The translations under genes were made by a program, and so were the position numbers. This document shows positions 4,448 to 56,642 of a DNA stretch of 64,000 nucleotides, in pieces. Origin of the DNA: Nannocystis radixulma (GTDB lineage: Bacteria; Myxococcota_A; Polyangia; Nannocystales; Nannocystaceae); the NCBI RefSeq assembly GCF_028369095.1, contig NZ_JAQNDN010000024.1:345350-409349 (forward strand), read 5' to 3'. The notes under the pieces are model-generated. The model did not search any database and was not told the DNA's origin. It saw only the letters and a program-made list of their open reading frames with translations. Position 1 is the first letter of the stretch, and every line of letters begins with the position of its first letter.

Positions 4448-5754
4448 TGCGCGTCGCGTTCGCCACGCACGGCTGTCGCCTCAACCAGTTCGAGTCCGAC
4501 GCCCTCGAACAGATGGCCCGCGCGGCCGGCCACACGGTCGTCGACGCCGAGGCCGCGCCGGAGCTGGTGGTCGTCAACACCTGCACGATCACCCACGAGG
4601 CCGACGCCGACGCGCGCCAGCACGTGCGTCGGGCCGCGCGCGCCGGCGCGAAGGTGGTGGTCACCGGCTGCTGGGCGACGGCCGCCCCCGAGGAGGCGGC
4701 GGCGCTGCCGGGGGTGACGCTGGTGGTCGGCAACCGCGAGAAGGAGCGGCTGGTGGAGCTGCTCTCGGGGACATGTGCAGATGGACATGTCCCGGAGATC
4801 CACGTGGCACCGGTCGACCTGGCCCGGCGGGTCCGCGTGGCCCGGCTGCGCCCCGCCGCCGATCCGCGGCGCAGCCGGGCGTACCTGAAGATCCAGGACG
4901 GCTGCGACTACCGTTGCAGCTTCTGCGTGGTGCCGCAGGTCCGCGGGCGCAGCGCGAGCGTGGCGCTCGACGAGGTGCGCGCGCAGCTGCAGGAGCTGGT
5001 GGCGGCGGGGGTGCCCGAGGTGGTGCTGACCGGGGTACACCTCGGGATCTACGGTCGCGATCTGCGGCCGCGGGCGTCGCTGTCGGGGCTGGTCGCCCAG
5101 TTGCTGCCGCACGTCGGGGCGGCGCGGCTGCGCCTCGGCTCGGTCGATCCGCACGAGGTCGACGACGACCTGGTGACGCTGTTGGCCAGCGAGCCGCGGC
5201 TGTGCCGGTATCTCCACCTGCCGGTGCAGAGCGGCGACGACGACACGCTGCGACGGATGCGTCGCGCCCACACGGCCGCCGACCTGCGCGCGCTGGTGCC
5301 TCGCCTCGCCGAGGTCGTGCCGGGGATCGGCGTCGGCACCGACGTGATCGTCGGCTTCCCTGGCGAGTCGGAGGCGGCCTTCGCGAACACCCATGCGCTG
5401 CTCGAGTCGCTGCCGCTGGCGTACCTGCATGTGTTCTCGTACTCGCCGCGGGCGGGCACGGATGCGGCCTGTCTTTCAGGGCAGGTCGATGCGGCGGTCA
5501 AGCAGCGCCGCGCGACGGCGCTGCGGGCGTTGTCGGCGGCGAAGCAGCAGGCGTTCGCGGCGGCGCAGGTGGGCCGGCGGGTGTCGGCGGTGATCCACCG
5601 CTCGCGTCACCGCCGGACGGGGCTGCTGGTCGGGCGCGCGGACAATGGATTGACGGTGCTGGCGGCCGGCGACGACGCGCTGCTGGGGCGGTCGGCGTGG
5701 ATCGAGGTCGAGCGGGCCGAGGGGCCGCTCGCGGTCGGGCGCCTGGTCGCCTGA
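4447..5754 (+). CDS. mtaB: MiaB/RimO-family radical-SAM methylthiotransferase (MtaB-like)
   Basis: ATG at 4447 overlaps the kinase stop (TGATG). MTTase N-domain VVNTCTIT..., radical-SAM motif CDYRCSFC, TRAM-like C-terminus. Confidence 0.85.
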
Positions 5755-8599: not shown

Positions 8600-8765
8600 A
8601 TAGGGCTGTCCGCGGGGACATGTGCGAGCGCGGGGCGGACGACGGGGCCTGCCGGCGCGAGGGGGCTGTCCGCGGGGACATGTGGGAACGGGGGGCGGCT
8701 GTCCGCGGGGACAGGTGCGGGCGCGGCGACTCAGGCGCGGGCATGGCTGTCCTTCGGGGCAGGTG
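8600..8765. repeat. four copies of the hairpin repeat GGCTGTCC-GCGG-GGACA(T/G)GTG between the subunit genes of the HcnABC-like operon
   Basis: CTGTCC at about 8606, 8666, 8698 and 8747, each followed 3-5 nt later by GGACAKG. The last copy overlaps the C-terminus of the large-subunit gene. Confidence 0.8.
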
Positions 8766-10032
8766 ACTCGGCGAGCGCGCGCACGAGGGCGGCGGCGCAG
8801 CGGTCGACGCTGGCCTGGATCTCCGCGGGGGTGGTCGCGCCGGCCAGCTCGCCGACGGCCCACAGGGTCCACGGCGGCGGGGGGGCGGTTTGGGCGTCGG
8901 CGGCCTCGAGCGGGTGAGCGGCCGGGCCGGCGGCGATCCGGCCGTCGGCGTCGCACTCGGGGGCGAAGCCGGCCCCGGTGAAGCGGATCGGCGCGCCGGC
9001 CTGGGCGGCCAGCTCGAACGCGGGGGCCGGGTCGGGGGCGAGGGCGACGAGGTCGCAGCGGAGGATCTTGCCGTCGTCGAGCTGCACGCCCTTGACCCGG
9101 CGGGCGCCGAGCAGCTTGTGCACGCGCGCCGGGGCGACCCGCTCGGCGCCGAGGCCGGCGGCGAGCAGTTCGGCGCGGGGACCCTCGCCGATGACGACGA
9201 CGCGCGCGGCGAGGCGGCGGCCTGTCTGTTCGAGCATGTCCGTGAGGCCACGTGCCGAGACGACCCCGGGGAGGTCGTTGTTGGCCAGCGGGATGGTCGG
9301 CTCGTGGGCGCCGACGGCCAGCACGACGTGGCGCGGGCGCAGCCGGTGGAGCACGGGCGGGTGCTCGGAGGCGGCCGCCCACAGCCGCTCCTGCGGGTAG
9401 CAGGCGAACACGCCGACGCCGGCGAGCAGGTGGGCCGGGCGGTCGGCGGCGGGCAGGGCGGCGGCGGGCCGACGCTCGACGACCAGCGGCGGACGCCCGG
9501 CGGCGGCGAGGGCGGCCGCGAGCGCGCGGCCGGAGCGACCTGCCCCGATGACCAGGACCTCGGGGACATGGTCGAAGAGACCGGCGGCGTCGTCGGGCGG
9601 GGCGTCGGGCAGCTCGCCGAAGCCGGCCAGCTCGCGGGCGACGCCCTGCATCATCTGGTTGGCGAGCCGGGGGTAGACGACGAGGTGGTGGTGGTCGATG
9701 CCGCGGCGGAAGATCTGGTCGACGAGGGCGGTCGGGTCGAGGCCGCCGTAGGTGTTCTGCGGCTCGACGACCATGTCCTCGCGGACAGGCGTGAGGCAGG
9801 CGCGCTGGTTGGGCCGGCCGTCGACGCGCACCAGGCAGGTGCCGCAGCCGCCGTGGAGGCAGGCCGGGCCGCGCAGGCGGCGGTACTTGGCGCTGCGGCT
9901 GGTGGCGAGCTCGCCCGCGGCGATCAGCGCCGAGGCGACGGTGTCGCCGGGACAGGCGGCGACGGCGGCGCCGTCCCAGCGGAAGGTGAGCGTCGGCGGC
10001 CCGGGCGGAGCGAGCAGAGGTGCCTTGGGCAC
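8731..10032 (-). CDS. pyridine-nucleotide-disulfide oxidoreductase with N-terminal 2Fe-2S domain (HcnB / OoxA-like large subunit)
   Basis: 2Fe-2S-like N-terminus ...ACLHGGCGTCLVRVDG...; FAD/NAD Rossmann VLVIGAGRSGRALAAAL and VVVIGEGPRAELLA. GTG near 10032 is the preferred start; the ATG at 10227 adds an Arg-rich leader. Confidence 0.65.
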   Translation of the reverse strand: MPKAPLLAPPGPPTLTFRWDGAAVAACPGDTVASALIAAGELATSRSAKYRRLRGPACLHGGCGTCLVRVDGRPNQRACLTPVREDMVVEPQNTYGGLDPTALVDQIFRRGIDHHHLVVYPRLANQMMQGVARELAGFGELPDAPPDDAAGLFDHVPEVLVIGAGRSGRALAAALAAAGRPPLVVERRPAAALPAADRPAHLLAGVGVFACYPQERLWAAASEHPPVLHRLRPRHVVLAVGAHEPTIPLANNDLPGVVSARGLTDMLEQTGRRLAARVVVIGEGPRAELLAAGLGAERVAPARVHKLLGARRVKGVQLDDGKILRCDLVALAPDPAPAFELAAQAGAPIRFTGAGFAPECDADGRIAAGPAAHPLEAADAQTAPPPPWTLWAVGELAGATTPAEIQASVDRCAAALVRALAESPAPKDSHARA

Positions 10033-10251
10033 GGGCCTGCGATAGCACGCCGCGCCGCGCGAAGACACAGGCGCCGGCCGCCGCGCCGCTTGCCCTCGGT
10101 CACGAGCGCCGGCGTCCGTGACAAGGTGGTGGGCGGCGCGAGAATGGCGACGCGATCGGCGACGGTCCGCAGCGCGGAGCGGCCAGCGTTCACGGCGGTG
10201 GTCAGCGCGTCGCGGACCGGTGTGCAACCTGCTGCCGGGTTGCGTGCGGTC

Positions 10252-10983
10252 TCAGACGCGCGGCGGGCGGGGGCCGAAGATCGCGGTGCCGACGCGGACC
10301 ATGGTCGCGCCTTCCTCGATCGCTACCTCGAAGTCGGAGCTCATGCCCATCGACAAGTGGGTCAACTCGACGCCGGGGCGGGCCACGGCGGCTTCGCGGC
10401 GCGCCAGCTCGCGCAGGCGGGCGAAGTACGGCCGGGTCTGCTCCGGCTCGCCCTCGGGCGGGATCGCCATGAGGCCGACGCAGCGCAGCTCGGGGCGGGC
10501 GGCGACGAGGTCGAGCAGCGCGGGCAGCTCGGCCGCGCTGACGCCGGCCTTCTGCGCCTCGTCGCCGACGTTGACCTCGACCAGGATCTCGAGCGGGGTG
10601 GTGGCGCCGCGACCGGCCCGCAGACGGGCGACCTCGCGGGCGAGCTCGTCGACGAGGGCGGGCCGATCGACGGTGTGGACCAGGGCGCCGACGCCGACGA
10701 CCTTGCGGACCTTGTTGGTCTGCAGCGGGCCGATGAAGTGCCAGCGCGGGGGGACGACGGCGGCGGCGACGGCCTCGGCCTTGGCGACCAGCTCCTGGGC
10801 GTAGTTCTCGCCGAAGTCGCCGAGGCCGGCGCGGCGGGCCGCGATCACGGCCTCGGCGGGCTGCTTCTTGCCGACGCCGATCAGGATCGGCTCGAGGCCG
10901 GGGCCGCGGCGGGCCACGGCGGCGGCGATCCGCGCGCGCACGGCGGCGAGGTTGGCGGCGATGTCGTCTGGCTCCAAGGACAT
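10252..10983 (-). CDS. yggS: YggS-family PLP-binding homeostasis protein
   Basis: ILIGVGKKQP...HFIGPLQTNK... alanine-racemase-N fold, 243 aa. Confidence 0.85.
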   Translation of the reverse strand: MSLEPDDIAANLAAVRARIAAAVARRGPGLEPILIGVGKKQPAEAVIAARRAGLGDFGENYAQELVAKAEAVAAAVVPPRWHFIGPLQTNKVRKVVGVGALVHTVDRPALVDELAREVARLRAGRGATTPLEILVEVNVGDEAQKAGVSAAELPALLDLVAARPELRCVGLMAIPPEGEPEQTRPYFARLRELARREAAVARPGVELTHLSMGMSSDFEVAIEEGATMVRVGTAIFGPRPPRV

Positions 10984-11044: not shown

Positions 11045-11926
11045 CTACTGCGGCAGGCAGGTGGCCGGGGCGGCGGCGCCGGCGAAGGTCGGGCCCATGT
11101 CGCGGTAGGTGTGGGCGCGCCAGAAGTCGCGCGGGTCCTCGGCCAGGTGGAGCGTGCGGTCGTCGCCGGTGCCGGTGACGGTGATCGCGGTCTCGAGGCC
11201 GTCGTGGCGCAGCGGGAACGACAGCGCCAGCCGGTCGCCGCGCTGGCGGTAGGTGAGGGTCTCGGTGGTCCACTCGTCGTAGTCGCCGCGGTGGTGCCAG
11301 CCGACGCCGCGGCCGTCGATCGCCTGCGGCTGCAGCTGGTAGATCGAGAAGCCCATGCCGCCGGTGGCGTAGCGGACCTCCTCGCCCCACAGCCGCCCGC
11401 CGATCCGGTCTCTGGCCGTGAGGACAGGTCCTTCGGAGCCTGTCGCTCGGGGCATGTCCTCGGGGCCATCGAAGCAGGGGGCGTCGGTGGCCGCTGCCGG
11501 GGCTTTGAAGTAGCGGGCGCCGCCGGCCTCGCGCGGGTCGTCGTCGAGGACCAGCCAGGTGCGGCCGCCGCCTTCCTCGAGGCGGTAGGGGACGCGCCGG
11601 CGCTCGCCGGTCTTGCGGAAGGTCAGCTCGAGGACGCCGCCCTGGGCGCTGTAGTCGAAGCTGTGGGTGTTGGTCAGGCCGACCTTGCCGTAGCGGTAGA
11701 GGCCGAAGCCGCCCTCGTGGAAGAACCAGAAGCGCATGCGGTCGCCCTCGGCGAGGGCGTCGAAGCGGTGCCACACGCCCAGCAGCGCGGGGTCGACGGC
11801 CTCGATCGCACAGCTGTCCTCGGGGACAGGATCGGGGGGCGCGAGCGGCGAGGCGATGATGAACGGGGCCGACAGCGCGAGGACCGCGAGGAGGTAGACG
11901 CTCGAGAGACAGAAGGGGCGCCGCAT
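11045..11926 (-). CDS. hypothetical secreted protein
   Basis: Signal peptide MRRPFCLSSVYLLAVLALSAPFIIASP; ATG at 11926. The upstream part of ORF 11045..12607 is an artefact. Contains two repeat-core copies in-frame, encoding PEDM and PVPED. Confidence 0.5.
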   Translation of the reverse strand: MRRPFCLSSVYLLAVLALSAPFIIASPLAPPDPVPEDSCAIEAVDPALLGVWHRFDALAEGDRMRFWFFHEGGFGLYRYGKVGLTNTHSFDYSAQGGVLELTFRKTGERRRVPYRLEEGGGRTWLVLDDDPREAGGARYFKAPAAATDAPCFDGPEDMPRATGSEGPVLTARDRIGGRLWGEEVRYATGGMGFSIYQLQPQAIDGRGVGWHHRGDYDEWTTETLTYRQRGDRLALSFPLRHDGLETAITVTGTGDDRTLHLAEDPRDFWRAHTYRDMGPTFAGAAAPATCLPQ

Positions 11927-14527: not shown

Positions 14528-15757
14528 TCACTCGTCCGGCTTCGCCACCCGCTGCGGCTGGACGCGTGACCCGCGGAGCATGTCCTGGAACGGGTTGTCG
14601 TCGCGCCAGACGTCGCCGGCGAGCATGCTGATGAGGCCACGACGCAGCTGCGGGTCGGGTGTGCGGGCGAAGAACAGGTGGGAGACGAGACGCGTGTGGT
14701 AAAAGCGGCGGATCAGCTGTTCGAAGCTGTCGTAGGCGATCTGCATGGTGGCGTGGACGGGGGCCATGAGATCGGGGTCGGCCTCGCGTCCGGCGGCGAG
14801 GGCCGGGACGAGGAGGTCGACGGTCCGCTCGGCGCCCAACATCGCCAGCGAGACGCCCGACGAGAACACCGGGTCGAGGAAGGCGCAGGCGTCGCCGACG
14901 CAGGCCCAGCGCGGACCGGAGGGGCGGGTGTTCTTGTAGCTCCAGTTGCGGATCGTCCGCGAGGCGCTGCGCGTGGCCCCGGCGGTGAGCCGCCGACACA
15001 GCGGTGAGGCGGCGAGGGCGGCCTCGAAGGCGTCGTCGTCGAGCTTGCCGCGCCACTTGACGAGGCCGACGCTGAGCCGACCGCCGTGCATCGGGATCAG
15101 CCAGTGCCAGCCGTCCTCGACGATCAGGACCTTGATGTTGCCCTGCTCGCCGAGCTCGGCCTGCACGTCGGGCGCGAGGCCGTCGAAGTGACAGAACACG
15201 GCGGCGCGCCCGAGCTCGTGCAGCGGGGCGATCGTGCGGGCACCGCGACCGAGCATGGCGTCCTGACCGGTGCAGTCGAGGAGGAAGCGGGCCCGGTGCT
15301 CGCCGCGGTCGGTGACGACGCGGACGTGATCGTCGGCGAACTCGATGTCAGTGACGCGCTCGCCGAAGCGGATGTCGGCGCCGCGGGAGACCGCGAGGTC
15401 GGCGAGCATGGTGTCGAAGGCGGCGCGGTCGACCTGCCAGGCGTGCGGCGGGGTGCCGTCGAGGCCGTCGGCGAAGCTGAAGAAAGCGAACTCGCCGGTG
15501 CGCTCGTCGATGAACTCGGCGCCCTGCTTGTACTGCCAGCGCGAGCGATCCATGGCGACGCCGAGGCGGGCGAAGATCGGCAGGTCGATCGGCAGCAGCG
15601 ACTCGCCGATGTGAAATCGCGGGAAGACGTCCTTGTCGAGCGCGAGCGCGCGGACGCCGGCCTGGGCGAGCAAGTTGGCGGCGGTCGAACCGGCAGGGCC
15701 GGCGCCGACGATCACGACGTCGTGCATGACCGCGTCATACCATGCCGCCGTTGACAC
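14528..15757 (-). CDS. flavin-dependent halogenase
   Basis: VVIVGAGPAGS GxGxxG motif plus the diagnostic WxWxIP motif (DGWHWLIP). An alternative ATG start at 15727 overlaps the fabG stop. Confidence 0.75.
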   Translation of the reverse strand: MSTAAWYDAVMHDVVIVGAGPAGSTAANLLAQAGVRALALDKDVFPRFHIGESLLPIDLPIFARLGVAMDRSRWQYKQGAEFIDERTGEFAFFSFADGLDGTPPHAWQVDRAAFDTMLADLAVSRGADIRFGERVTDIEFADDHVRVVTDRGEHRARFLLDCTGQDAMLGRGARTIAPLHELGRAAVFCHFDGLAPDVQAELGEQGNIKVLIVEDGWHWLIPMHGGRLSVGLVKWRGKLDDDAFEAALAASPLCRRLTAGATRSASRTIRNWSYKNTRPSGPRWACVGDACAFLDPVFSSGVSLAMLGAERTVDLLVPALAAGREADPDLMAPVHATMQIAYDSFEQLIRRFYHTRLVSHLFFARTPDPQLRRGLISMLAGDVWRDDNPFQDMLRGSRVQPQRVAKPDE

Positions 15758-16457
15758 CGATCACCTGACCGGTGACGTACGCGGCTTCGTCCGTGGCGAG
15801 GAAGGCGACCAGCGCGGCGACCTCCCGGGCGGTGCCGAGCCGCTGGGCGGGGATCCGCGGCATGACGTGCTCGAGCGGGACGTCCTTGATCATGTCGGTG
15901 TCGATGAGGCCGGGGGCGACGGCGTTGACGGTGACGCCCTTGCGGGCGAGCTCGAGCGCAAGCGATTTCGTCGCGCCGATGACGCCGGCCTTGGCCGCGG
16001 CGTAGGCGACCTGCCCCCGGTTGCCGATCTGCGCCGAGACCGAACTCATGGTGATGATCCGGCCCCACTTGCGCCGCACCATCGGCATGATCACCGGCCG
16101 GGTGACGTTGTAGAAGCCGCCGAGGCTGGTCCGAAGGACAGCTTCCCAGTCGGCCCGCTCGAGCGCGGGGAACGGGGCGTCGCGGGCGATGCCGGCGTTG
16201 TTGACGACGACGCCGAGAGGCCGCGGATCGGCCAGGATCGCGGCAATGGCGGCGTCGGCGGCCGCGTCGTCGCCGACGTCGAAGCGGCTGAGGACGACCT
16301 CGCCTCCCGCCTGGCGGATCCTGGCGGCGACGGCCTCGGCGGCGGCGTCGTCGCTGCGGTAGTTGAGGACGATCGGGTGGCCGGCGGCCGCGAGGGCCTC
16401 GGCGATCGCGGCGCCGATCCCTCGACTGGCGCCGGTGACGAGGGCGCGCGGCTTCAT
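15735..16457 (-). CDS. fabG: 3-oxoacyl-ACP reductase (SDR)
   Basis: MKPRALVTGASRGIG...NNAG...YAAAKAG; 240 aa; ATG at 16457. Confidence 0.85.
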   Translation of the reverse strand: MKPRALVTGASRGIGAAIAEALAAAGHPIVLNYRSDDAAAEAVAARIRQAGGEVVLSRFDVGDDAAADAAIAAILADPRPLGVVVNNAGIARDAPFPALERADWEAVLRTSLGGFYNVTRPVIMPMVRRKWGRIITMSSVSAQIGNRGQVAYAAAKAGVIGATKSLALELARKGVTVNAVAPGLIDTDMIKDVPLEHVMPRIPAQRLGTAREVAALVAFLATDEAAYVTGQVIGVNGGMV

Positions 16458-16888
16458 GCGGGGCTCCCGGGGGCGGTGGTGACGACGTGGAGGACGGCCT
16501 CGGCGAGCGGCTCGCCGCGGCGGGTGACGACGGCCTGGTACTCGGCCATGGCGCCGGCGAACACGCGGGTGGCGACGATCTGCAGCGCGTCGCCGACGGC
16601 GAGGTGCTCGGCGTGCAGCTCGAGGCTGCGGCAGGCGGCGATCATGCCGAGCGCGGGCGGCTGACCGTCGGCGCGCGCGCGCAGGCCGGCGAACGCGGCG
16701 ATCGCCTGGGCCATGTACTCGAGCACGACGGAGGCGTGGACGCGGCCGGCGACAGCGAACAGGTTGTCGGGGCGGACGACGGCGGCGCAGGTGATCGCGT
16801 CGTCGCCGGCGGCGAGGACCTCGTCGACGAGCAGCATCGGCGGGCGCTGCGGGACCAACTCGGCCACCGGCGCGAACGCGGCGGTCAT
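16454..16888 (-). CDS. hotdog-fold 3-hydroxyacyl-ACP dehydratase (APE-cluster type)
   Basis: 144 aa from MTAAFAPVAELVPQRPPMLLVDEV...; the upstream Arg-rich extension of the ORF is ignored. Confidence 0.65.
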   Translation of the reverse strand: MTAAFAPVAELVPQRPPMLLVDEVLAAGDDAITCAAVVRPDNLFAVAGRVHASVVLEYMAQAIAAFAGLRARADGQPPALGMIAACRSLELHAEHLAVGDALQIVATRVFAGAMAEYQAVVTRRGEPLAEAVLHVVTTAPGSPA

Positions 16889-17676
16889 GCCCCGGCTCCC
16901 AGCGCGCACTGCCAGCCGGCGGCGAGGTGCGGCTCGAGGGCGACGCGGGCCGGAGCGCCGGCGGCGAGGGCGTCGACCAGCGCGAGCGCGGCGGCGCACG
17001 GGTTGTCGGCCAGCCATGCCGGCGCGGGGCGTGCTGGCGCGAGGGACATGTCGTTAGGGCCCTGTTCCAGGCGACATGTCGTGGCGGGCATGTCCGAGGG
17101 TGCAGGTGCGGACAGGGCGAAGGCGGCCGCGAACGGGCCCCAGCGGCGGCCGGCGGCCAGCGGCTCGGGCAGGGGCTCCTCGGCGATGACGAGCACGACG
17201 TCGCCCTCGCCGGCGGCGACGAGCGCGGCGCACTCGAGCAGGCCCATGGCGAGGGTGGAGCGGCCGGCCGAGAGGGCGGCGTTGCCGGCCCGGCTGCCGG
17301 TGGCGATCGAGACGTAGCCTGCGGCGGTGTTGTGGACGCTGTTGTGGAATTTGGTCGGCGACAGCGGCTCGCCGGCGACGAGCAGGGCGGCCAGGAGGTC
17401 GAGGGTGGTGCGGATCTCGCCGTAGACGGAGCCGTAGACGAGGGTGGCGCCGGTCGCATCGAGGCCGCCGGCGCGCAGGGCCTGGGCCGCGACCTCGGCG
17501 GCCATGCGGGTGAGCAGGCTGGTGCGCCGGCGCATCATCGGCGGCAAGAGCTCGGCCTTCGGCGTGGCACTCTGGTCTTCGGGACAGGCGTCGGGGCGGG
17601 CCTTCCAGGCGGCGAGGTCGGGGTAACCGGGGGCCCAGAAGCCGAGGCCACGGACGGTGAAGGCGAGCGCGCTCAT
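16885..17676 (-). CDS. beta-ketoacyl-synthase N-terminal-like (CLF-like) protein carrying an in-frame repeat insertion
   Basis: 263 aa; KS-N-like TLVYGSVYGE...FHNSVHNTAAGYVSIA. Residues ~190-215 (APSDMPATTCRLEQGPNDMSLAP) are encoded by a five-unit 14-bp repeat array at about 17042-17118. Confidence 0.6.
   Translation of the reverse strand: MSALAFTVRGLGFWAPGYPDLAAWKARPDACPEDQSATPKAELLPPMMRRRTSLLTRMAAEVAAQALRAGGLDATGATLVYGSVYGEIRTTLDLLAALLVAGEPLSPTKFHNSVHNTAAGYVSIATGSRAGNAALSAGRSTLAMGLLECAALVAAGEGDVVLVIAEEPLPEPLAAGRRWGPFAAAFALSAPAPSDMPATTCRLEQGPNDMSLAPARPAPAWLADNPCAAALALVDALAAGAPARVALEPHLAAGWQCALGAGA
17042..17118. repeat. 14-bp phased GACATGTC array (5 units) inside the KS-N-like coding sequence
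   Basis: ATGTC/CTGTT/ATGTC/ATGTC/AGGTG at about 17048, 17062, 17076, 17090 and 17104; exact 14-bp spacing. Confidence 0.8.
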
Positions 17677-18854
17677 GCCGGGCCTCCGACGAGGACGCTG
17701 CAGTTGCTGCCGCCGAACGCGAACGAGTTGCTGAGGGCGGCGCGGGTCCGCTGCTCGCGGCGGGCGGTGACGACGTCGACGCCGAGCGCCTCGTCGAGCG
17801 GGTCGGCGCCGACGCTGGCCGGGAGGTAACCGTGGGCGATGGCGTCGACGACGAAGGCGACCTCGGTGGCGCCGGCAGCCCCGAGCATGTGCCCGGTGTA
17901 GCCCTTGGTGGCGACCACGGCGGGCGCGGGCGCGCCGGCGAAGACGGACCGGATCGCCTGGCTCTCCATGCTGTCGTTCTGCTTGGTGCCGGTGCCGTGG
18001 GCGTTGACGTGATCGACGTCGGCGGCGAAAAGGCCGGCGAGCTTCAGCGCGCGCTCCATCGCCAGGCGAGCGCCGAGGCCCTCGGGGTGCGGGCTGGTCA
18101 TGTGGTAGGCGTCGCTGCTCTCGCCGACGCCGAGCAGGCGGGCCGGACCCTCACCTGTCCGTTCGACCAGGAGGAGGGCGGCGCCCTCGCCGATGTTGAT
18201 GCCGGCGCGCTCGCGCGAGAATGGACGACATGGCTTTGAGGACAGGACCTCAAGGCCAGCAAAGCCGCGCACGGTGAGGCGGCACAGGCTGTCGACGCCG
18301 CCGACGAGGACGGCGTCGCACAGGCCGGCGGCGAGCAGGCGCTGGGCCGAGGCGAACACCTTGGCGCTCGAGGAGCAGGCGGTCGAGACGACGTAGGCCG
18401 GGCCGGCGAGGCCGCCGCCGAGGACGCGCGCGAGGTGGAGGACGGCGTCGAGGGCGTGCGAGAGCTCGACGTCGTAGTGGGCCGGCAAAGCGCCGCCGTG
18501 GGCCTGGGCGTGGGCATAGGCGCCCTCGCTGGCCTCGATGCCGCCGGTGCTGGTGCCGAGGACCACGCCGACGCGATCGGCGCCCCAGCGGGCGCAGGCG
18601 CGGGCGAGCGGGGCCTGCAGCTCGGCGAGGGCGACGGCGGCGATCCGCGTCTGCCTCGTGTCGCGCACGGGCTCGAGGAAGCCGGGCAGCGGCGGCAGCG
18701 GGGTCGGGATGGCGCCGACGACGGCGTCGAGCTCGAACTCGGAAGGGCACGGGCCGAGGCCGGAGCGACCGGCGCGCAGAGCCGCGAGCACGGCGGCGGT
18801 GCTGTCGCCCATGCCGTTGCACAGGGCCATGGCGGTGATCGGGTACGGCTGCAT
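17673..18854 (-). CDS. beta-ketoacyl-ACP synthase (KAS I/II-like)
   Basis: VVSTACSSS active-site Cys, HMTSP, NAHGTGT, GHMLGAAG motifs; 393 aa; ATG at 18854. Confidence 0.85.
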   Translation of the reverse strand: MQPYPITAMALCNGMGDSTAAVLAALRAGRSGLGPCPSEFELDAVVGAIPTPLPPLPGFLEPVRDTRQTRIAAVALAELQAPLARACARWGADRVGVVLGTSTGGIEASEGAYAHAQAHGGALPAHYDVELSHALDAVLHLARVLGGGLAGPAYVVSTACSSSAKVFASAQRLLAAGLCDAVLVGGVDSLCRLTVRGFAGLEVLSSKPCRPFSRERAGINIGEGAALLLVERTGEGPARLLGVGESSDAYHMTSPHPEGLGARLAMERALKLAGLFAADVDHVNAHGTGTKQNDSMESQAIRSVFAGAPAPAVVATKGYTGHMLGAAGATEVAFVVDAIAHGYLPASVGADPLDEALGVDVVTARREQRTRAALSNSFAFGGSNCSVLVGGPA

Positions 18855-18865
18855 CGGCGTGGCGG

Positions 18866-20125
18866 TCACAGGCCGGGGGCCGGGAAGGCGCGCAGGAACT
18901 CGCGCACGCGGGCGCGGTGGGCCTCGCACTGGGCGTCGTCGGCGCTGGCGACGGCGAGGCCGATGCCGTCGGCGATGAGGTCGGCGACGTGCGGGATGTG
19001 ATGGGTCTGGATGCCGCGCGAGGTGATCGCGGCCAGGCCGATCCGCAGGCCCGAGGGGTCGAACGGCTTGCGCGGGTCGAACGGGATCGCGTTGGCGTTG
19101 AGCTCGATGCCGCAGCGGTTGAGCACCCGGGCGACGTGCCGACCGCCATGACCGGTGGGCGTGAGATCGACGAGCAGGAGATGGTTGTCGGTGCCGCCGG
19201 AGACGAGGGTGTGTCCGCGCGCGATCAGGGCCTCGGCGAGGGCGCGGGCGTTGGCGACGATCTGCTGCGCGTAGTCGCGGAAGCTCGGCTGCAGCGCCTC
19301 GCGGAAGGCGACCGCCTTGGCGGCGGTGGTGTGGCAGTGCGGGCCGCCCTGCAGGCCGGGGAACACGGCCTTGTCGATCGCGGCGGCGTGCTCCGCCTTG
19401 CAGAGGATGAGGCCGCCGCGCGGGCCGCGGAGGGTCTTGTGCGTGGTGGTGGTGACGACGTCGGCGTGCGGCACCGGGCTCGGGTGCGCGCCGCCGGCGA
19501 CGAGGCCGGCGATGTGCGCGATGTCGGCCGCGAGGTAAGCCCCGACCTCGCGCGCGATCGCGGCGAAGCCGGCGAAGTCGAGCTGGCGCGGGTAGGCCGA
19601 GTGACCGACCCAGATGAGCTTGGGGCGATGGGTCAGCGCGAGGGTGCGGACCTCGTCCAGGTCGATGCGGTGATCGTCGCGGCGGACGCCGTACTGGACG
19701 GCCTTGTAGTAGATGCCGGTGGCGCTGACCTTCCAACCGTGGGTGAGGTGACCGCCCGCGGGGAGGCTGAGCCCCATGATCGTGTCGCCGGTCTGGCACA
19801 GGGCGAGCAGCGCGGCCAGGTTGGCCGGCGAACCGCTGTAGGGCTGCACGTTGGCGTGGTCGGCCCCGAACAGCTCGCGCGCGCGGGCGACGGCGAGCGA
19901 CTCGATCGGGTCGACGAAGTCCATGCCCTCGTAGTAGCGCTTGCCCGGATAACCCTCGGCGTACTTGTTGGTGAGGCTGCTGCCGGTGGCCGCGAGCACG
20001 GCCTTGGACACGTAGTTCTCGCTGGCGATCAGGCGCAGGCTGTCGCGCTGGCGCGCGTCCTCCTGCTCGATCAGCGCGAAGATCTCGGGGTCGGCGGCGG
20101 AGAGCTCGGGATCGCGGGCGTGCAT
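18866..20125 (-). CDS. glyA: serine hydroxymethyltransferase
   Basis: LIASENYVS...[17 protein letters not shown]-lysine motif. Confidence 0.9.
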
Positions 20126-20341: not shown

Positions 20342-23314
<2,973 letters not shown>

Positions 23315-23321: not shown

Positions 23322-23372
23322 TTCAGGGCATGTCGAAACGGGCATGTCTTGAAGAGCATGTGACAGGCGGCG
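23322..23372. repeat. 14-bp phased array, 3 units
   Basis: GGGCATGTCGAAAC GGGCATGTCTTGAA GAGCATGTGACAGG. Confidence 0.75.
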
Positions 23373-28519: not shown

Positions 28520-28578
28520 CGGGCATGTTCGCCGGGACAGGGTGATCGGGACAGGGTGTTTCGGACATGTCCGTAAAG
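28520..28578. repeat. 14-bp phased array (~4 units) in the trpC-trpF intergenic spacer
   Basis: GGGCATGTTCGCC GGGACAGGGTGATC GGGACAGGGTGTTTC GGACATGTCCG. Confidence 0.75.
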
Positions 28579-30526: not shown

Positions 30527-30568
30527 TCTTTCAGGGCATGTCGTGAAGGACATGTCCTTGAATGCAAC
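30527..30568. repeat. 14-bp phased array, 3 units
   Basis: TGATGTCTTTCAG GGCATGTCGTGAA GGACATGTCCTTG. Confidence 0.75.
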
Positions 30569-31186
30569 TCAGCAGTCGGCCTCGTCGGAGCCGTCGGCGC
30601 AGTCCTGGGCCGTGTCGCACTTCCAGGTCGCCGGGATCTCGATGCCGTCGGCGCAGGTGAAGGCCTCCTGGCCGCAGCCGGTGACCTCGTCGGAGTTGTC
30701 CACGCAGTCGGCGACCTCGTCGCAGGCCCAGGTCGCGGGGATCTCCTTCTTGTCGCCGCTGCAGGTGAAGGCCTCGAGGCCGCAGCCGGTGACCTCGTCG
30801 GAGCCGTCGGGGCAGTCGGGGTTCTCGTCGCAGACCCAGGCGGGGTCCTCGAGCGCGGTGCCGTCGCTGCAGACGAAGCCCTCGCCGGTGGTGGCGTCGG
30901 TGGCGGTGCCGGCGGTCGCGTCGGTGGTGCCGGCGGTCGCCTCGGTGGTGGTCGGCGCCTCGGTGGTGGTCGGCACGCTCGAGTCCGTGCCGGTCGCGGT
31001 GCCCTCGGTCCCGCCGTCGGTGGTGGTCGTATCGTCGGTGGTGCCGGTCGTGCTCGTCGTCGAGGTTTCGGGGCCGATGTTGGTGTCGGTCAGGCCGTTG
31101 CCGAGATTGATCGTGCAGGCGGCTGTGCCGAGGCCCTGGCTCATGAGCGCGGCCACGGTCAAAAACTTCGAGAGGTCGATGTTCAT
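30569..31186 (-). CDS. secreted Thr-rich protein with three LDL-receptor class A (LDLa) modules
   Basis: Signal peptide MNIDLSKFLTVAALMSQGLGTAAC; Thr/Gly/Asp-rich linker; FVCSDG..WVCDENPDCPDGSDE, FTCSGD..WACDEVADCVDNSDE and FTCADG..WKCDTAQDCADGSDE. Confidence 0.65.
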   Translation of the reverse strand: MNIDLSKFLTVAALMSQGLGTAACTINLGNGLTDTNIGPETSTTSTTGTTDDTTTTDGGTEGTATGTDSSVPTTTEAPTTTEATAGTTDATAGTATDATTGEGFVCSDGTALEDPAWVCDENPDCPDGSDEVTGCGLEAFTCSGDKKEIPATWACDEVADCVDNSDEVTGCGQEAFTCADGIEIPATWKCDTAQDCADGSDEADC

Positions 31187-37273: not shown

Positions 37274-37594
37274 TCACAGGAGCGAGTCGGAGACGAAGAC
37301 GGGCCGGCTCGGGCGGCGCGCGGCCAGGAAAGCGGCCTTCCGCCGGTGATCCGCGTCGAGCTGTGCGCGAATCGCGGCCCACAGGTGCGGCTCGCTCCAG
37401 GTCGCGCCGAGACAATCTCGGGGATCGCGCGGCGGCACCGGGGCGGGCAGATCCGGTCCCTCCGGCTCCGGCTCGGGCGGCGTCCGCGGCTCGGGCTCCG
37501 GCCGCGGCGCCACGTCCGGCAGACCGGGGTCGTCCGGAGCGGGGATTTCACGGATCGGAGTGGGTGTGATCCGCAGTCGGCGACGGCGTTGCAT
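37274..37594 (-). CDS. hypothetical small Pro-rich protein
   Basis: ORF only; the C-terminal part DCLGATWSEPHLWAAIRAQL looks protein-like, the N-terminus is PE-rich. Confidence 0.3.
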   Translation of the reverse strand: MQRRRRLRITPTPIREIPAPDDPGLPDVAPRPEPEPRTPPEPEPEGPDLPAPVPPRDPRDCLGATWSEPHLWAAIRAQLDADHRRKAAFLAARRPSRPVFVSDSLL

Positions 37595-38104
37595 GGGTTG
37601 GGATCTGCACTGAACACATAATCAGTGTCCAGCGATCACCCATGCTGCCCTGAACTCTTGATCAGGAGTGGACCAACCAAATCGCGCGGCGCAAAACTGC
37701 GCCGAGCGGCGAATTGGCCGCAATAGCGGCCCGGGGGCCGTTTCACGGCCGGGGCGGAGACGCGCGCAAAGCGGCGGCAAAAGCGGCGAGCGGCAGCGCG
37801 CCGAGCTGGCCTTCAGGACAGGGAGATCGCGTCGCGGGCGAGGCTGGCGCCTGCTTTCGCAGAGCTGGCATTTTCGCGCGGCGAGCGGTCTGCGCTTTCG
37901 AGGCAGGGGCGAAATCGCGCCGGAGCGGGGCGAGCGGGAAAATGAGAGAGGGAGCAAGAACGCGTATAGCGTCCAGACGGCATTCGTCAGCGCCCCGACG
38001 AGCGGCCGGTGGGACGGGCGTGGCTGGAGGTGCTGCCAGGCGTCCCCGGGTCGGGTGGCGGAGGCGGGGCCGCGAAGGCGACCGATGGCCGCTCGTCTGT
38101 CGAG

Positions 38105-38335
38105 GCGGCTGGTCGAAAGGACAGCGGACGCCGGCTCGGCGCGCTCGTCGTCGGGCTGGTCGCAAGGACAGCTGACGCCGGCTCGGCGCGCTCGTCGTCG
38201 AGGCGGCGCTGGTCGCAAGGACAGCCGACAGCGGCGGGCTCGACGTCGAACGGCGCGGAGCACGAGGACAGGTCGTGTCGCTCGGTCGTCGACCCATCGG
38301 GTGGCCGAAAGGACAGACGAGGCCGGTGGGGACAC
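38105..38335. repeat. tandem ~55-bp repeats (3-4 copies) carrying a GGTCGMAAGGACAG core
   Basis: GCTGGTCG(A/C)AAGGACAGC(G/T/C)GACGCCGGCTCGGCGCGCTCGTCGTCG repeated at about 38108, 38162 and 38217, with a degenerate copy at about 38300. It sits in a ~780-bp non-coding gap downstream of rlmE. Confidence 0.7.
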
Positions 38336-38375
38336 GCGGCGGGCGGAGGGCTCGTCCGCGGAGTCGTGTCGCGGC

Positions 38376-38996
38376 TCAGGGCCGGCGAGCGGTGGCGCTG
38401 GCCTTGAGGCCGCGGCCGACGAGGTACTGCTCGGTGCTCGAGGCGCGCGAGTTCTTGGCGTGGTACGGGCGGGCTTCCTGGAAGCTGGCCCGGAAGCGCT
38501 TGAGCAGCTCGCCGAAGCCGCCGCCCTGGAACACCTTGGCGACGAGGTGGCCGCCTGGCCGAAGGACCATGCAGGCGATGTCGAGGGCGCGCTCGGCGAG
38601 GCCCTCGCTGCGGACGACGTCGGTGTGGCGGTCGCCGGTGGTATGCGGGGCCATGTCACTGAGGACGACGTCGAACGGGGCGAGGTCGGGCGCGGGGGCC
38701 CACTCGAACACGTCGGCGATCCGGTGCTCGACGTACGCGGGGAAGCTGAGGACGACGGGCTTGAGGTCGAGGCCGAGGACGTAGCCGGTGTCGGTCACGC
38801 GGTCGCCGGCGTACTGCATCCACGAGCCGGGCCAGCAGCCGAGGTCGAGCACGCGCGCGCCCTGGCGCAGGATGTGGAACCGCTTGTCGATCTCCTCGAG
38901 CTTGTAGACCGCGCGCGCGGCGTAGTTCTCCTGCTTGGCGCGCTGGTAGGCGGCGTCGTGGCGGGTGGCCTTGTCGCTGAGGCGGGGGCGAGGCAT
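38376..38996 (-). CDS. rlmE: 23S rRNA (uridine2552-2'-O)-methyltransferase RlmE/FtsJ
   Basis: VLDLGCWPGSWMQY...VVLSDMAP...K..D FtsJ motifs. Confidence 0.85.
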   Translation of the reverse strand: MPRPRLSDKATRHDAAYQRAKQENYAARAVYKLEEIDKRFHILRQGARVLDLGCWPGSWMQYAGDRVTDTGYVLGLDLKPVVLSFPAYVEHRIADVFEWAPAPDLAPFDVVLSDMAPHTTGDRHTDVVRSEGLAERALDIACMVLRPGGHLVAKVFQGGGFGELLKRFRASFQEARPYHAKNSRASSTEQYLVGRGLKASATARRP

Positions 38997-39069
38997 GACG
39001 GTGTCTTAAGCAGCCGAGCCGGCTCTCGGCCGGCTCGAACTTGGGGACATGTCCCGAAGGACAGGGCCT

Positions 39070-42306: not shown

Positions 42307-42386
42307 GGATGTCTTTTCGGGCATGTCGCCCGGGGCATGTCCTTTAAAAAATGTCGCCAGGGACAGGGCCCTGGCGACAGGTGCGA
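42307..42386. repeat. 14-bp phased array, 6 units
   Basis: Core starts at about 42309, 42323, 42337 and 42351, with degenerate copies at about 42365 and 42379; exact phase. Confidence 0.85.
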
Positions 42387-43095: not shown

Positions 43096-43424
43096 GGACT
43101 GTTCCTCCGAGTGGCGGCCAGTGTGGCCGGGCGAGCGTCCTGGCGCCAGGGACTTGCAGGCACTTTCAGCGCCAGGCGCCGCGCACGCGCGGGGGCGTCG
43201 GGCCCCGCTTTGCGAGGAAACGCAGCGAGATTCGTGAGTTGCGGCCGGAGGCGGGGTTCACGAGCGCCCAGCGTCGGTGGGGTCCCCGGCGGACGGCGCA
43301 GCCAGTCCTCGGGCGTGACCCTTCGTGGGTGACCGCAGGCACGGCGAGATCCACGGGTCGGCGGGCGCGAGGAGGTGGTTGTTCGGGCATGCTTGAAAGG
43401 ACATGTCTGAATAGACATGACCGA

Positions 43425-44516
43425 TCACGGGCACAGCGGACGCGACGGGGTGGCGCAGGCGAGGCCGGCGACGAGCTCGACGCGGTAGTTGTCGCGGCGG
43501 GCCTCGGCGTCGGCGGCGATCGGGCTGTCGGCGCCGCGCGAGGTGGGCACGAGCATGACGTGGACGAAGCCGCGGTCGACCAGGGTGTCGCGCACCTTTT
43601 CGGCCATCGTCAGGCCGAGCCGGCGGGCCTGGTCGGGCGGGAGGTCGTCGCCGGTGTGGCCCTCGAGCGAGAAGTTGCCGCCGGTGCGGTAGCGCGGGGC
43701 GAGCTGCTTGCGCCGGGCGTCGAGCTCGAGGAAGGCATGCTCGTCGAGCTCGAGGGTGTCGGGGTCGTAGGGGATCCGGACGACGAAGCGGCCGCAACCG
43801 GCGACGAAGGCCTCGGGACAGCCGTCGTCGTCCTCCTCGCCGTCGACGGTCTCGGGCTGGTTGCGGCAGTCGTGGCGGCCCTTGCCGGGCTCGAGCCGGC
43901 CGTCACAGTTGACCCACTCGCTGCCGGTCCAGCGGGCAGCGTCGAGGACGCCGTCGCCGTCGTTGTCGCGATCGGGGCAGCCGTCGTGGTCCTGGTGGCG
44001 ATCGTAATCTTCGGGGAGGTCGGGGCAGGGATCGTCGGGGTCGGCGACGCCGTCGCGGTCGTGATCGGGGGCGTAGGGCGGGCACAGGCCGCGCAGCTGC
44101 AGCCAGCTTCCAGCCAGCGGATCGTCGGGCGGCCCGCCGGGGACGCCGTGGACCACGAGGGTGACGCGATCGGCGGGATGGACCGCGGCGCGGAAGCGGG
44201 CCAGGACGTCGTCGCCGAGGGCCTGCAGGCCGGCGTCGCGTCGCGTGGGATCGGCGAGCTCGCGGGCGGCCGCGGCCATGTGCACGGCCAGCTCGACGCG
44301 CAGCTCGGGGTCGGCGCGCAGGCGATCGATCCAGTCGCCGAGCTCGGAGGCGCCGCTCTCGTCGAGCGCGGGCGCGGCGGGGCCGGCGTCGAGGTACGGG
44401 ATGGTCGCGAGGATCGCGGCGCACTCGGAGACAGGGGGACGGCGGGCCGGCTCGGAGTGCTGGGAAGCGCAGGCCAGGCAGAGAGTCAGCAACCCGAGTC
44501 GCACGGCGCTTCGCAT
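43425..44516 (-). CDS. OmpA-family lipoprotein with thrombospondin type-3 (TSP3) repeats
   Basis: LCLAC lipobox; DHDRDGVADPDDPCPD...DHDGCPDRDNDGDGVLD calcium-binding repeats; C-terminal OmpA-like domain. Confidence 0.75.
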   Translation of the reverse strand: MRSAVRLGLLTLCLACASQHSEPARRPPVSECAAILATIPYLDAGPAAPALDESGASELGDWIDRLRADPELRVELAVHMAAAARELADPTRRDAGLQALGDDVLARFRAAVHPADRVTLVVHGVPGGPPDDPLAGSWLQLRGLCPPYAPDHDRDGVADPDDPCPDLPEDYDRHQDHDGCPDRDNDGDGVLDAARWTGSEWVNCDGRLEPGKGRHDCRNQPETVDGEEDDDGCPEAFVAGCGRFVVRIPYDPDTLELDEHAFLELDARRKQLAPRYRTGGNFSLEGHTGDDLPPDQARRLGLTMAEKVRDTLVDRGFVHVMLVPTSRGADSPIAADAEARRDNYRVELVAGLACATPSRPLCP

Positions 44517-44741
44517 CGGTTCTCGTCTGCAGCATACGTGCGACGGCTCGGGGCGGCGTGGATCTGGTGCGCCAGGGCAGCGAAACGCCCGCGGGCGCGG
44601 GGGCGCCGGTTGTGGCGGGCTGGAGCCGCCTCTCGGGGGACGCGGCGGGTCGGGATTCCGCGCGATCTCGGGGGTCGGCGGACGCGGGGGGCGGCGCCCG
44701 GCGCGTGGGGGACGGCGCTCGCCCCGGGCGCTGCGGCGGTT

Positions 44742-44836
44742 CTCAGGATGTCTGAAAGGACATGTGAGTCGGGCGGGCCTTTGCCCGCGGCGCCGCTGCG
44801 CCGTCAGGATGTCTGAAAGGACATGTGACTCGGGCG
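44742..44836. repeat. two copies of a ~35-bp element CAGGATGTCTGAAAGGACATGTGA(G/C)TCGGGCGGGC, 60 bp apart
   Basis: Perfect duplicate apart from 1 nt; contains the ATGTC-N6-GACAT hairpin. Confidence 0.8.
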
Positions 44837-44862
44837 GGCTCGCGTGTGCGAGGACGAGGGGG

Positions 44863-47907
<3,045 letters not shown>

Positions 47908-48111
47908 CAGCTCCGCAAAGTCCGCCGGGAGCAGCACGACGCCAAGGATACGTGAGTCCAGGCCGGTGGCCGGGCGCGGCCGGCGAGAACGGTGTTGCCG
48001 CCGAGCCAGGCGGGCGCGGACGGCCCGCCGGCCGCCGGGCGGGCCCGCCTCCGAGGGCCAAGCGGGCGGCGAGGAGGCAGGCGGACGTCGGCGCTGGACG
48101 GGGTCCACACC

Positions 48112-48190
48112 GACATGTCATGAACGACATGTCGAGAAAGACATGTTTGTCGAGATATGTCCTCCGGGACATGCCCCGAAGGTCATGGCT
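48112..48190. repeat. 14-bp phased array, 6 units
   Basis: ATGTC/ATGTT/ATGCC at about 48115, 48129, 48143, 48157, 48171 and 48185. Confidence 0.85.
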
Positions 48191-48197
48191 CGGAGGG

Positions 48198-49637: not shown

Positions 49638-50190
49638 GGGCCGATGAACGCACGATCCCCCTCATGAGGGCAAGTCCCCGACGTGGGCCCCTTGCCCGGG
49701 GATGTGCGGATGCATCGTCGGGGAGGACAGAGGGCCTCGCTTGCGGGGGGCGGACACGTGCACGCGCAGGGCCGTGGTAGCGAGGTGACTGTGCTGTCAC
49801 GCAGCGGCGATGCGATGCCCCGAGCGGGGTCGGCCGGCGACGCAGCGCGAGTGAGGGAGTGACGAAACGGCGCGGGGATGTCGCGAGCTGCGATTCGGAT
49901 CGAGCGCGGCGAATGTGATTGGGGAGTCAGCGGGTCCGCGACAGGACCGGCGCAGGTCGAGCGGCCGGCGTCGAAGGCGCTCGAGGTGCCCGGGGATCTC
50001 CGCGGGTGGGGCCGGCGTCGAGGGTCGTGCGGGGGGCGTGTGTCCGCGGATCGATCGGGGGCCAGACGCCAAGTCGGTCGGGGAAGCGCGGCGCACTGCG
50101 AGATCCGGCGGGGCGGAGGACCCGCGGGGAGCGGCAGGGCGGGTGATTTTCACGCGCGGCGGCGCAGGCGGGATGGGTATCATCGCGCCG

Positions 50191-53168: not shown

Positions 53169-53175
53169 GGTGGGA

Positions 53176-53282
53176 ACGGGACATGTCCTGAGGGCATGTC
53201 CATGCGTCGCCGGGACATGTCGATGAGGACATGTCTGAGAGAGAATGTCATGAAGGACATGTCACATGGGATATGTCCGGAC
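53176..53282. repeat. 14-bp phased array, 7-8 units (the longest in the window)
   Basis: ATGTC at about 53183, 53196, 53217, 53231, 53245, 53259 and 53273. Confidence 0.85.
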
Positions 53283-53495
53283 GGCAGGCAGGGCGGGGCC
53301 TGGGCTGGTTCGCGGCGACCGCGAGCTCGCGGCGAGGACGAGGGCGCCGCTGAGCGCGCGAGCGGGCGGCGGCGGTCGCGGCCGCTGGGCCGGGGATCCG
53401 CGGACTTTGCGCGGAAGGGTTGAAATGGGCCGTGGAGGGCCCGCGGGCGGCAAAAATGGCGCGACGAGTCGGTCGGAGCTTGCGTCGATCGCCGC

Positions 53496-53918: not shown

Positions 53919-53985
53919 GCCCGCGGCGGGGGCATCTCGGTGAGGGTGGTCCGCTGCTCGACGCCGTCGGCGAGCGGCAAGGTGT

Positions 53986-56577: not shown

Positions 56578-56642
56578 GAGGACATGTCGATACGAACATG
56601 TCTAAATGGGCATGTTGATGAGGACATGCCACGTCGGACAGC
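56578..56642. repeat. 14-bp phased array, 4 units
   Basis: Core starts at about 56584, 56598, 56612 and 56626. Confidence 0.8.

Follow-up and report, generated by a model that had tools for sequence, protein, structure and literature searches.

Within a 64,000-nucleotide (nt) stretch of the genome of Nannocystis radixulma (hereafter the window), the gene for a chain length factor (CLF) contains an array of five short palindromic modules, at 17044-17109, that is translated as part of the protein. The modules belong to a dispersed repeat family that recurs in 14-nt register, is found mostly just after stop codons, and has the potential to form hairpins between neighboring units. In the CLF gene the array adds no residues, and its two central modules are retained, by way of rare codons, at the same position in most orthologs. 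As the best explanation, to which we assign a probability of about 0.6, we propose a family resembling the repetitive extragenic palindromes (REPs) that acts mainly as putative transcript 3'-end hairpins, and a CLF copy that is old, overprinted on the protein-coding sequence, and constrained at the level of DNA or RNA. An original prediction, made from the sequence of the window, had attributed to the array the behavior of the Rickettsia palindromic elements (RPEs), which enter genes in frame; this description suits the family, which has produced in-frame gains in two other genes of the window, and fails for the CLF locus.

The array within the chain length factor gene

The features at the center of this analysis are as follows.

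16885-17676, minus strand: aryl-polyene-type CLF, 263 aa (Ketoacyl-synt_2, Pfam PF13723, E 2.5e-40)
17044-17109, unstranded: focal array, five modules with an exact 14-bp period, encoding CLF residues ~190-211
17072-17095, unstranded: central module pair, at the same site in 9 of 11 ortholog loci
17110-17119, unstranded: degenerate module GGACAGGGCG, 3 mismatches, out of phase with the array

A module of this family comprises 14 nt, a 10-nt palindromic core with the consensus GGACATGTCC plus a 4-nt spacer, and is repeated head to tail. The focal array, 66 bp in length, consists of five degenerate modules that start at 17044, 17058, 17072, 17086, and 17100 and read, on the plus strand and in this order, GGACATGTCG, GGCCCTGTTC, CGACATGTCG, GGGCATGTCC, and GTGCAGGTGC, with 1, 3, 2, 1, and 4 mismatches to the consensus. 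For comparison, 0.15% of all positions in the window match the consensus with at most two mismatches, 0.5% with at most three, and 2.6% with at most four; three of the focal modules are strong and two are weak, one of these supportive and the other marginal. The original prediction was correct in recognizing five units of exact period inside the gene, as well as their translation, without a break of frame, as ...APSDMPATTCRLEQGPNDMSLAP... within the minus-strand open reading frame (ORF) 16885-17676. On the sense strand, the central pair is GGACATGCCC-gcca-CGACATGTCG, which encodes D-M-P and T-C-R, with ACA as the threonine codon and TGT as the cysteine codon.

The array is not a secondary insertion, as had been supposed, but overlies an existing stretch of normal length that is modeled as a beta-strand, a turn, a second beta-strand, and a loop. 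An insertion should leave a gap at the repeat-encoded residues when the protein is aligned with its orthologs, and no such gap is present among 34 homologs ranging from 96% to 34% identity. The conserved EEPLPEPL and NPCA are 51 aa apart in the window; among close Nannocystis relatives the interval is 47-53 aa, and distant homologs that lack the motif have 45-50 aa. Likewise, the motif-free orthologs at loci L087 and L085 encode a segment of equal length, so that these two, together with homologs of 40-50% identity, have a segment of this length without the repeat, and in distant homologs an 'xxRLxxG' aligns with the 'TCRLEQG' of the CLF. In the AF2 (AlphaFold) model, strands 182-189 and 199-207 are joined by a turn at 190-198, the least confident part (~75); because the residues encoded by the array include strand 199-207, the modules cover a part of the predicted fold and not an added loop. 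The PDB homolog 6qsp_B aligns no further than the last residue ahead of the array, and mapping of the segment on that solved structure is therefore precluded. The CLF loop is itself a hot spot of insertion and deletion: immediately upstream of the conserved pair, the orthologs at L086 (5908-6789), L083 (10001-10846), and L088 (10001-10879) have insertions of 9-21 aa that are specific to their lineages. In L088, whose gene has ~75% GC, the inserted sequence contains an AT-rich stretch that is directly duplicated, ATCTATACA ATCTATACA.

We compared the DNA of the window CLF with that of ten further ortholog loci, 11 genes in all. Two modules 14 nt apart are found at the same codons in nine of these genes, even at ~62% protein identity. 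Their common pattern is GG(A/G)CATG(T/C)CC, four bases, and (C/G)GAC(A/C)TGTCG, encoding [D/G/N]-M-[S/P] and R/T-T-C-R. Where orthologs have threonine at the corresponding position (eight genes), the codon is ACA in six, and where they have cysteine it is TGT in 10 of 10 apart from L087 (TGC). These are uncommon choices: neighboring genes of the same loci use ACA for 9 of 490 threonine codons and TGT for 29 of 132 cysteine codons, and in the window the two codons make up 1.8% and 15% of their respective sets. Codon typicality falls sharply at CLF codons 186-220. The methionine and the Thr-Cys pair, which are confined to the motif-bearing clade, are precisely the residues encoded by the core ATG and ACATGT. 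Taken together, the rare codons, the clade-limited residues, and the shared site indicate a constraint at the nucleic-acid level that is overlaid on that of the protein. In one ortholog, at L089 (CLF at 10001-10807), the central pair lies inside an extended 19-bp stem within the coding sequence (dG -34.7 kcal/mol).

Across the array region, N. radixulma and N. pusilla share 91.5% identity, as compared to 95.8% for the surrounding block, and in N. pusilla the module at 17044 is broken, with a change of Met to Lys; the outer modules are of recent origin and have begun to decay. We considered phase variation through slippage of 14-bp units and rejected it, as the modules resemble one another too little for slippage and the array has stayed stable between the two species.

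The host is a real gene, although its operon is not the fatty acid synthase-like cluster that had been proposed. The gene encodes the CLF of an aryl-polyene-type type II polyketide synthase; its product is 100% identical to a protein of N. radixulma that carries the annotation 'beta-ketoacyl synthase chain length factor' and shares 96% identity with the CLF of N. pusilla. It is the third gene of an operon with the order SHMT-KS-CLF-ApeP dehydratase-KR-halogenase. The gene for SHMT (serine hydroxymethyltransferase) is located upstream; the other neighbors are listed here.

17673-18869: ketosynthase (KS)
16454-16888: ApeP-like dehydratase
15735-16457: ketoreductase (KR)
14528-15757: flavin halogenase

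That the reading frame is one gene, as originally proposed, was confirmed. Two genes separated by an intergenic array might be expected from the usual habitat of the family, whose arrays are normally intergenic, and a 187-aa ORF with an ATG at 17017 does exist in another frame. However, a plot of the GC content at third codon positions (GC3) follows a single, stop-free frame from 17676 to 16885, dipping across the array, and the TGA stop (16885-16887) shares the sequence ATGA (16885-16888) with the start codon of the ApeP-like dehydratase. The last 40 residues of the C-terminus are kept among the 34 aligned homologs, the protein is annotated as a single entity in two genomes, and it is modeled as one confident fold (pLDDT 90). 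We rejected the two-gene arrangement accordingly, and consider the chance that it is correct to be negligible.

The module family across the window and in metagenomes

Modules are far more abundant in the window than base composition would predict. The exact 8-mer GACATGTC is present in 20 copies (0.65 expected from shuffled sequence), and GGACATGTCC with at most two mismatches in 93 (~28 expected). The distances between modules peak at 14 bp (17 cases), with 9 cases each at 28 and 42 bp. The motif is ~16-fold enriched outside genes; among modules with at most one mismatch, 21 of 29 are outside regions with a coding signature, and a match at 8616 is also intergenic according to the annotation of N. 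pusilla. Non-coding modules are mostly found 11-65 nt from a stop codon, between genes of the same direction or convergent genes. Because each core is its own reverse complement, neighboring modules can pair: adjacent modules form hairpins of 8-15 bp, and in several intergenic copies the stems reach past the module borders. The intergenic arrays fold with z-scores of -2.5 to -6.3, with the exception of a weak copy at 39045. The intergenic copies are the following.

23326-23349, plus strand: copy 12 nt past the stop of the Ser/Thr kinase gene, folding into a hairpin whose stem measures 15 bp, its position kept in N. pusilla; z -6.3
28521-28572, plus strand: array flanked by two plus-strand genes, with GGACAGGG variants among its modules
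30534-30557, unstranded: two-module hairpin downstream of the plus-strand stop at 30483; z -4.1
39045-39068, minus strand: copy 16 nt past a minus-strand stop; z -1.2
42319-42370, unstranded: array between convergent genes
43399-43422, minus strand: copy 17 nt past a minus-strand stop
48111-48176, minus strand: array of 4-6 modules, 22 nt past a minus-strand stop; z -2.5
53179-53278, plus strand: largest intergenic array, 6-7 modules, beginning 11 nt past the PmbA/TldD stop; z -4.65
56580-56631, unstranded: array in a divergent spacer
57138-57175, unstranded: array in a convergent spacer, at distances of 15 and 35 nt from the flanking stops; z -5.5
63903-63940, plus strand: array 13 nt past a stop; z -3.7

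An independent sample was obtained by scanning metagenomes for two exact modules 14 nt apart, which returned 80 contigs, 68 of them with a GC content of 67-78%. Of the arrays that could be classified, 39 of 45 are intergenic and six (~13%) are inside a coding signature; 30 of the 39 sit at most 150 nt downstream of a stop codon, at a median distance of ~15 nt. When arrays that follow a stop are oriented in the sense direction of their single upstream gene, the substitution A3->G, which retains a G.U pair in RNA, outnumbers its mirror image T8->C, which yields an A.C mismatch, by 17 to 3. This excess of the G.U-compatible change suggests selection on the transcript. As a motif-free control, we used distant CLF homologs (at most 48% identity) among the matches listed from a contig search with the CLF alignment, none of which is from a Nannocystis genome; in 870 kb around these loci exact 8-mers occur at 0.05 per 10 kb, as compared to 3.1 per 10 kb here. 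Viral contigs gave only two motif matches; the family is therefore not phage-borne. No Rfam 15 family matches the window at the gathering threshold, and none matches 16900-17250 with E<=1; in the literature we found no description of the motif or of specific repeats in Nannocystis or the myxobacteria.

A consensus scan of 20 kb (window 44001-64000) detected no hairpin-plus-T-tract terminators, fewer than in shuffled sequence, and on this basis we rejected the possibility that the arrays are classical terminators of that type. The same 20 kb contain no sigma-70-like promoters, again fewer than shuffled sequence. The array-flanked ORFs 53496-53918, 56740-57123, and 57182-57502 are NTF2-like, of unknown type, and MGMT-like, respectively, and in these three ORFs a Pfam search found no Y1_Tnp domain. 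In the phased arrays of the window, the spacers are A-rich on the plus strand (A 25, T 13 of 68 bases) regardless of the direction of the neighboring genes; position 10 is often G and position 1 seldom C. The spacer polarity is not reproduced in the metagenome arrays and may be local or linked to the replication strand; as a general, replication-linked feature of the family it was dropped.

Palindromic repeats of this dispersed family are tolerated in frame in other genes as well, as had been claimed, and the following copies in coding sequence were confirmed.

4769-4792, plus strand: two modules in mtaB (proposed at 4767-4795), 0-1 mismatch, encoding GTCADGHVP in the linker between the MTTase and radical-SAM domains
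11422-11459, minus strand: three-module copy in an uncharacterized protein with a signal-peptide-like N-terminus (proposed near 11440 in a 'secreted protein'), encoding PEDMPRATGSEGPV; z -3.5
21004-21013, plus strand: one exact GGACATGTCC in a Ser/Thr kinase (STPK; proposed near 21003), encoding RDMSE in a variable linker

Ortholog alignments of these genes reveal gaps in two of them. In the uncharacterized protein, where modules at 11422 and 11450 enclose a degenerate one, the distance from ARYFKA to IGGRLWG is 32 aa here and in N. pusilla, 24 aa at L086, and 18 aa at L087. This in-frame gain in length is real; it amounts to 14 and 8 aa, and 14 aa correspond to 42 bp, exactly three modules. 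Relative to sister lineages of the Nannocystaceae, the genus Nannocystis has an MtaB linker extended by 3-5 aa; the T-C and H-V residues of this linker are kept within the genus, and its two modules fold as a strong hairpin (z -5.8). The kinase copy entails no change in length relative to five orthologs. In the kinase ortholog at L083 (16170-19292), the linker that holds GGACATGTCC in N. radixulma bears a (GEKS)x5 peptide repeat, and the kinase linker is therefore freely expandable. Of three further proposed copies, that near 11806 is only a CTGTCC-N4-GGACAG half-hairpin, with the best module match at 11824 (3 mismatches), and the other two were not supported. The best match near 17570, in the CLF gene itself, has 4 mismatches in the window genome, and the ortholog at L083 has two good modules in that loop; the trpE copy near 24795 reduces to a lone 2-mismatch match at 24805, with no insertion or deletion among orthologs, that is compatible with chance. 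Half-modules of the form CTGTCC-N4-GGACAG (a 6-bp hairpin with a 4-nt loop) occur at 8600-8740 and 11800-11825, where full modules degenerate, and differences in length between N. radixulma and N. pusilla fall between them.

The window contains several longer repeats. A stretch of ~1.3 kb without coding signature (57537-58737) includes a perfect 62-bp tandem repeat of 3.2 copies (57537-57733) and a 64-bp tandem repeat of 6.8 copies (57913-58344), the latter within a 229-nt inverted repeat (57699-57927 and 58509-58737, 93% complementary), each arm of which bears one exact GGACATGTCC (57790 and 58637). Another tandem repeat, with a period of 47 or 100 bp (~80% matches), is located at 38090-38271 in a stretch without coding signature (37513-38376). 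At 30580-30974, a 108-bp tandem repeat of 2.9 copies is followed by 21-bp and 18-bp repeats; these are probably part of a gene for a repeat-containing protein, with ORFs on both strands.

Weighing the explanations

In the explanation that we favor, the array belongs to a repeat family confined to Nannocystis and its family, with 14-nt modules whose usual site is the first tens of nucleotides after stop codons, where adjacent modules can pair as hairpins. Such hairpins would most likely serve in termination or in the protection of transcript 3' ends from exonucleases, in a genome that, judging from the 20-kb scan, appears to do without hairpin-plus-T-tract terminators; we know of no recognizable terminators in myxobacterial genomes of >70% GC. 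The CLF modules are written by means of the otherwise rare codons ACA, TGT, CCT, GAA, and GCA and of the residues Met and Thr-Cys that only this lineage has, and the two central modules are older than the split of Nannocystaceae lineages whose CLFs are now only ~60% identical. Having predated that divergence, they would be held by a DNA- or RNA-level constraint beyond that of the protein alone. We infer that the family acts as RNA hairpins, and that the intragenic pair has been kept through use rather than through a drive of copying or repair.

Several observations weigh against this explanation. Between the arms of the central pair there is no compensatory covariation, with 75% of cells paired as compared to 71% in shuffles; the focal array is not a notably stable RNA structure (z -0.46); and L089 is the one ortholog with a strongly folding central pair (z -6.0), folding being weak or absent in the others. 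The constraint within the gene acts on the motif rather than on pairing, and conservation of this kind is explained by a protein-binding site or a copying drive at least as readily as by an RNA hairpin. Because the orthologs are not independent samples, the raw counts overstate the strength of the codon argument. The array at 56580, between divergent genes, is the sole clear exception to the location of copies after stops. Finally, no REP-associated transposase was seen among the array-flanked ORFs that were examined, and the family lacks the GTAG or CGTC tag of most REPs.

Since conservation in the gene is at the level of the motif, two main rivals, a functionless copying drive and phased protein binding, both stay in contention. 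In the former, modules that the CLF gene merely tolerates would be spread and refreshed by copying, whether through a RAYT-type transposase, through slippage, or through short-patch conversion. The rapid turnover of the outer modules, with the reduced identity to N. pusilla and the broken module at 17044, would follow naturally, as would the restriction of all copies in coding sequence to variable linkers or loops and the differences in array size by whole numbers of modules (for example, 42 bp). It is harder to reconcile with a central pair that has stayed at the same codons despite ~60% protein identity, where neutral synonymous sites should randomize, with the lack of a Y1 transposase among the array-flanked ORFs, or with the ~10 nt that modules have in common, which is short for homologous conversion; we regard persistence of this sort as conceivable though doubtful. 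Alternatively, the palindromes could bind dimers of a nucleoid-associated or regulatory protein, with the 14-bp phasing reflecting cooperative binding, the CLF copy being a putative intragenic site and the hairpin potential a by-product of tandem palindromes. Strict phasing, the drift of modules about one consensus without compensatory changes, and the retention of motif but not pairing in the gene all fit this idea, as do the A-rich plus-strand spacers of the window, found whatever the gene direction, and the fact that Escherichia coli REPs bind IHF and gyrase. Nevertheless, operator sites do not cluster past stops and between convergent genes, the 17:3 asymmetry on the sense strand favors a role in RNA, the stems of several intergenic copies exceed the modules, and the spacer polarity is not seen in the metagenome set, which makes protein binding rather unlikely.

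The remaining alternatives concern the CLF copy only. Secondary insertion, in which a mobile palindromic array entered the gene in frame and added a new peptide as RPEs or REPs may do, has precedent in the gains of the uncharacterized protein (14 and 8 aa) and MtaB (3-5 aa) and in the 9-21 aa insertions of the CLF loop at L086, L083, and L088, and the anomalous codon usage of the array is what would be expected of foreign DNA. Against it stand the gapless alignment, with 51 aa in this loop and 45-50 aa in motif-free homologs, the equally long segments of L087 and L085, and 'TCRLEQG', which lies in a modeled beta-strand and aligns with 'xxRLxxG' of distant homologs; a compensating deletion of equal size would be required, and we judge insertion distinctly improbable. 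It is less credible still that D-M-S/P-x-R-T-C-R-L has been kept for the sake of the protein and resembles the repeat by chance. The residues do form part of a structured beta-hairpin and recur in many Nannocystaceae homologs; however, the match requires the rare codons ACA (1.8%) and TGT (15-22%) in most orthologs, two to five modules keep exact 14-nt register with the most over-represented 10-mer of the genome, and the M and T-C are missing from homologs outside the repeat-carrying clade.

We tentatively suggest that the GGACATGTCC-based 14-nt module might be the recognition unit of an as yet undescribed gene-end system found throughout the Nannocystaceae, either a terminator or 3'-end signal independent of a U-tract or a phased array that binds a dedicated protein. 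The CLF pair might then be a long-kept functional intragenic site, a nucleic-acid signal that dictates the Met and Thr-Cys of the beta-hairpin. If this bolder and rather speculative proposal were correct, the CLF segment would be a case of true dual coding, possibly setting the ratio of KS and CLF expression to that of the downstream dehydratase and reductase.

Comparison with known repeat systems

REPs are mostly found between unidirectional or convergent ORFs, ~20 nt or less from the upstream stop and often in clusters; they fold as hairpins for which a role in the transcript is assumed, a minority are intragenic and encode 20-30 aa when they form dimers or groups, and the tetranucleotide GTAG or CGTC terminates the repeat in most superfamilies (Di Nocera et al. 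2013, PMC3733652). The Nannocystis family resembles REPs and the clusters that they form (BIMEs) in that it is a short palindromic repeat of high copy number with stem-loop potential, is chiefly extragenic, in unidirectional or convergent spacers close to where the upstream ORF ends, and has a minority of copies inside coding sequence. Its architecture is different: a REP is an imperfect palindrome of 20-40 nt in clusters of alternating orientation, whereas here a symmetric 10-nt core with a 4-nt spacer is repeated head to tail, and hairpins form between neighboring direct-repeat modules rather than within one palindrome. Furthermore, the consensus GGACATGTCC-NNNN contains neither GTAG nor CGTC, no RAYT gene was seen beside the arrays of the window, and the focal intragenic copy adds no residues and is kept at the family level.

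Palindromic repeats in coding sequence had been described as best known from Rickettsia and as unusual in a high-GC genome of the deltaproteobacterial type. They are less unusual than that, as intragenic REPs have been documented outside Rickettsia in the same paper that mentions RPE-1, RPE-4, and RPE-6 (PMC3733652). What our family shares with the latter are palindromic repeats in frame within genes and, in two other genes of the window, extra sequence relative to orthologs. RPEs are elements of ~100-150 bp that are inserted as units and, to our knowledge, always add a peptide. By contrast, our arrays span 24-100 bp and are built of 14-nt modules, most members of the family lie outside genes, and the focal CLF array adds no peptide; membership among the RPEs fails because of element size and architecture. 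The location in the protein differs likewise, with the RPE peptide on the surface outside the core fold and the CLF array covering strand 199-207 and the turn at 190-198 of the model.

A parallel for the residue-neutral copies is HIP1 of the cyanobacteria (GCGATCGC), a short, perfect, over-represented palindrome that is retained in coding sequence at orthologous positions. The CLF and STPK copies likewise place an over-represented palindrome in a gene without changing its length. HIP1 is distributed roughly evenly across coding and non-coding DNA and is not known to occur in phased tandem arrays, unlike the Nannocystis motif, which is enriched outside genes and phased at 14, 28, and 42 bp. The DNA uptake sequences (DUS) of Neisseria and uptake signal sequences (USS) of the Pasteurellaceae are 9-12-mers tied to natural competence, often in inverted pairs that form hairpins just past genes, and they also occur in coding regions, at tolerant positions and without insertion. 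They thus share with our family an over-represented short motif, hairpins after genes, and copies in genes that add nothing; the Nannocystis modules are tandemly phased, and we know of no tandem phasing of DUS or USS. CRISPR arrays, with repeats of 24-48 nt, unique spacers of similar length, and cas genes nearby, differ from 10-nt cores with 4-nt spacers.

A repeat that is tolerated in coding sequence is not new, as intragenic REPs are known in several bacteria, and the present family is neither a new kind of mobile element nor a Rickettsia-like case. What appears to be new is the modular 14-nt family of the Nannocystaceae, the residue-neutral intragenic copy, and its retention, with rare codons, across the family. 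If our explanation is correct, the lineage-specific module ~15 nt past stops would be easy to search for and, in Nannocystis, which as a genus is mined for natural products, would show in practice where transcripts end and how operons are delimited. The CLF case would mean that an in-frame repeat is not always an insertion and that an overlay may constrain an existing protein sequence, which would matter for how conservation in alignments is read; codon optimization for heterologous expression would erase the motif. REP-like biology would, in that event, extend to the Myxococcota, with an unusual modular architecture.

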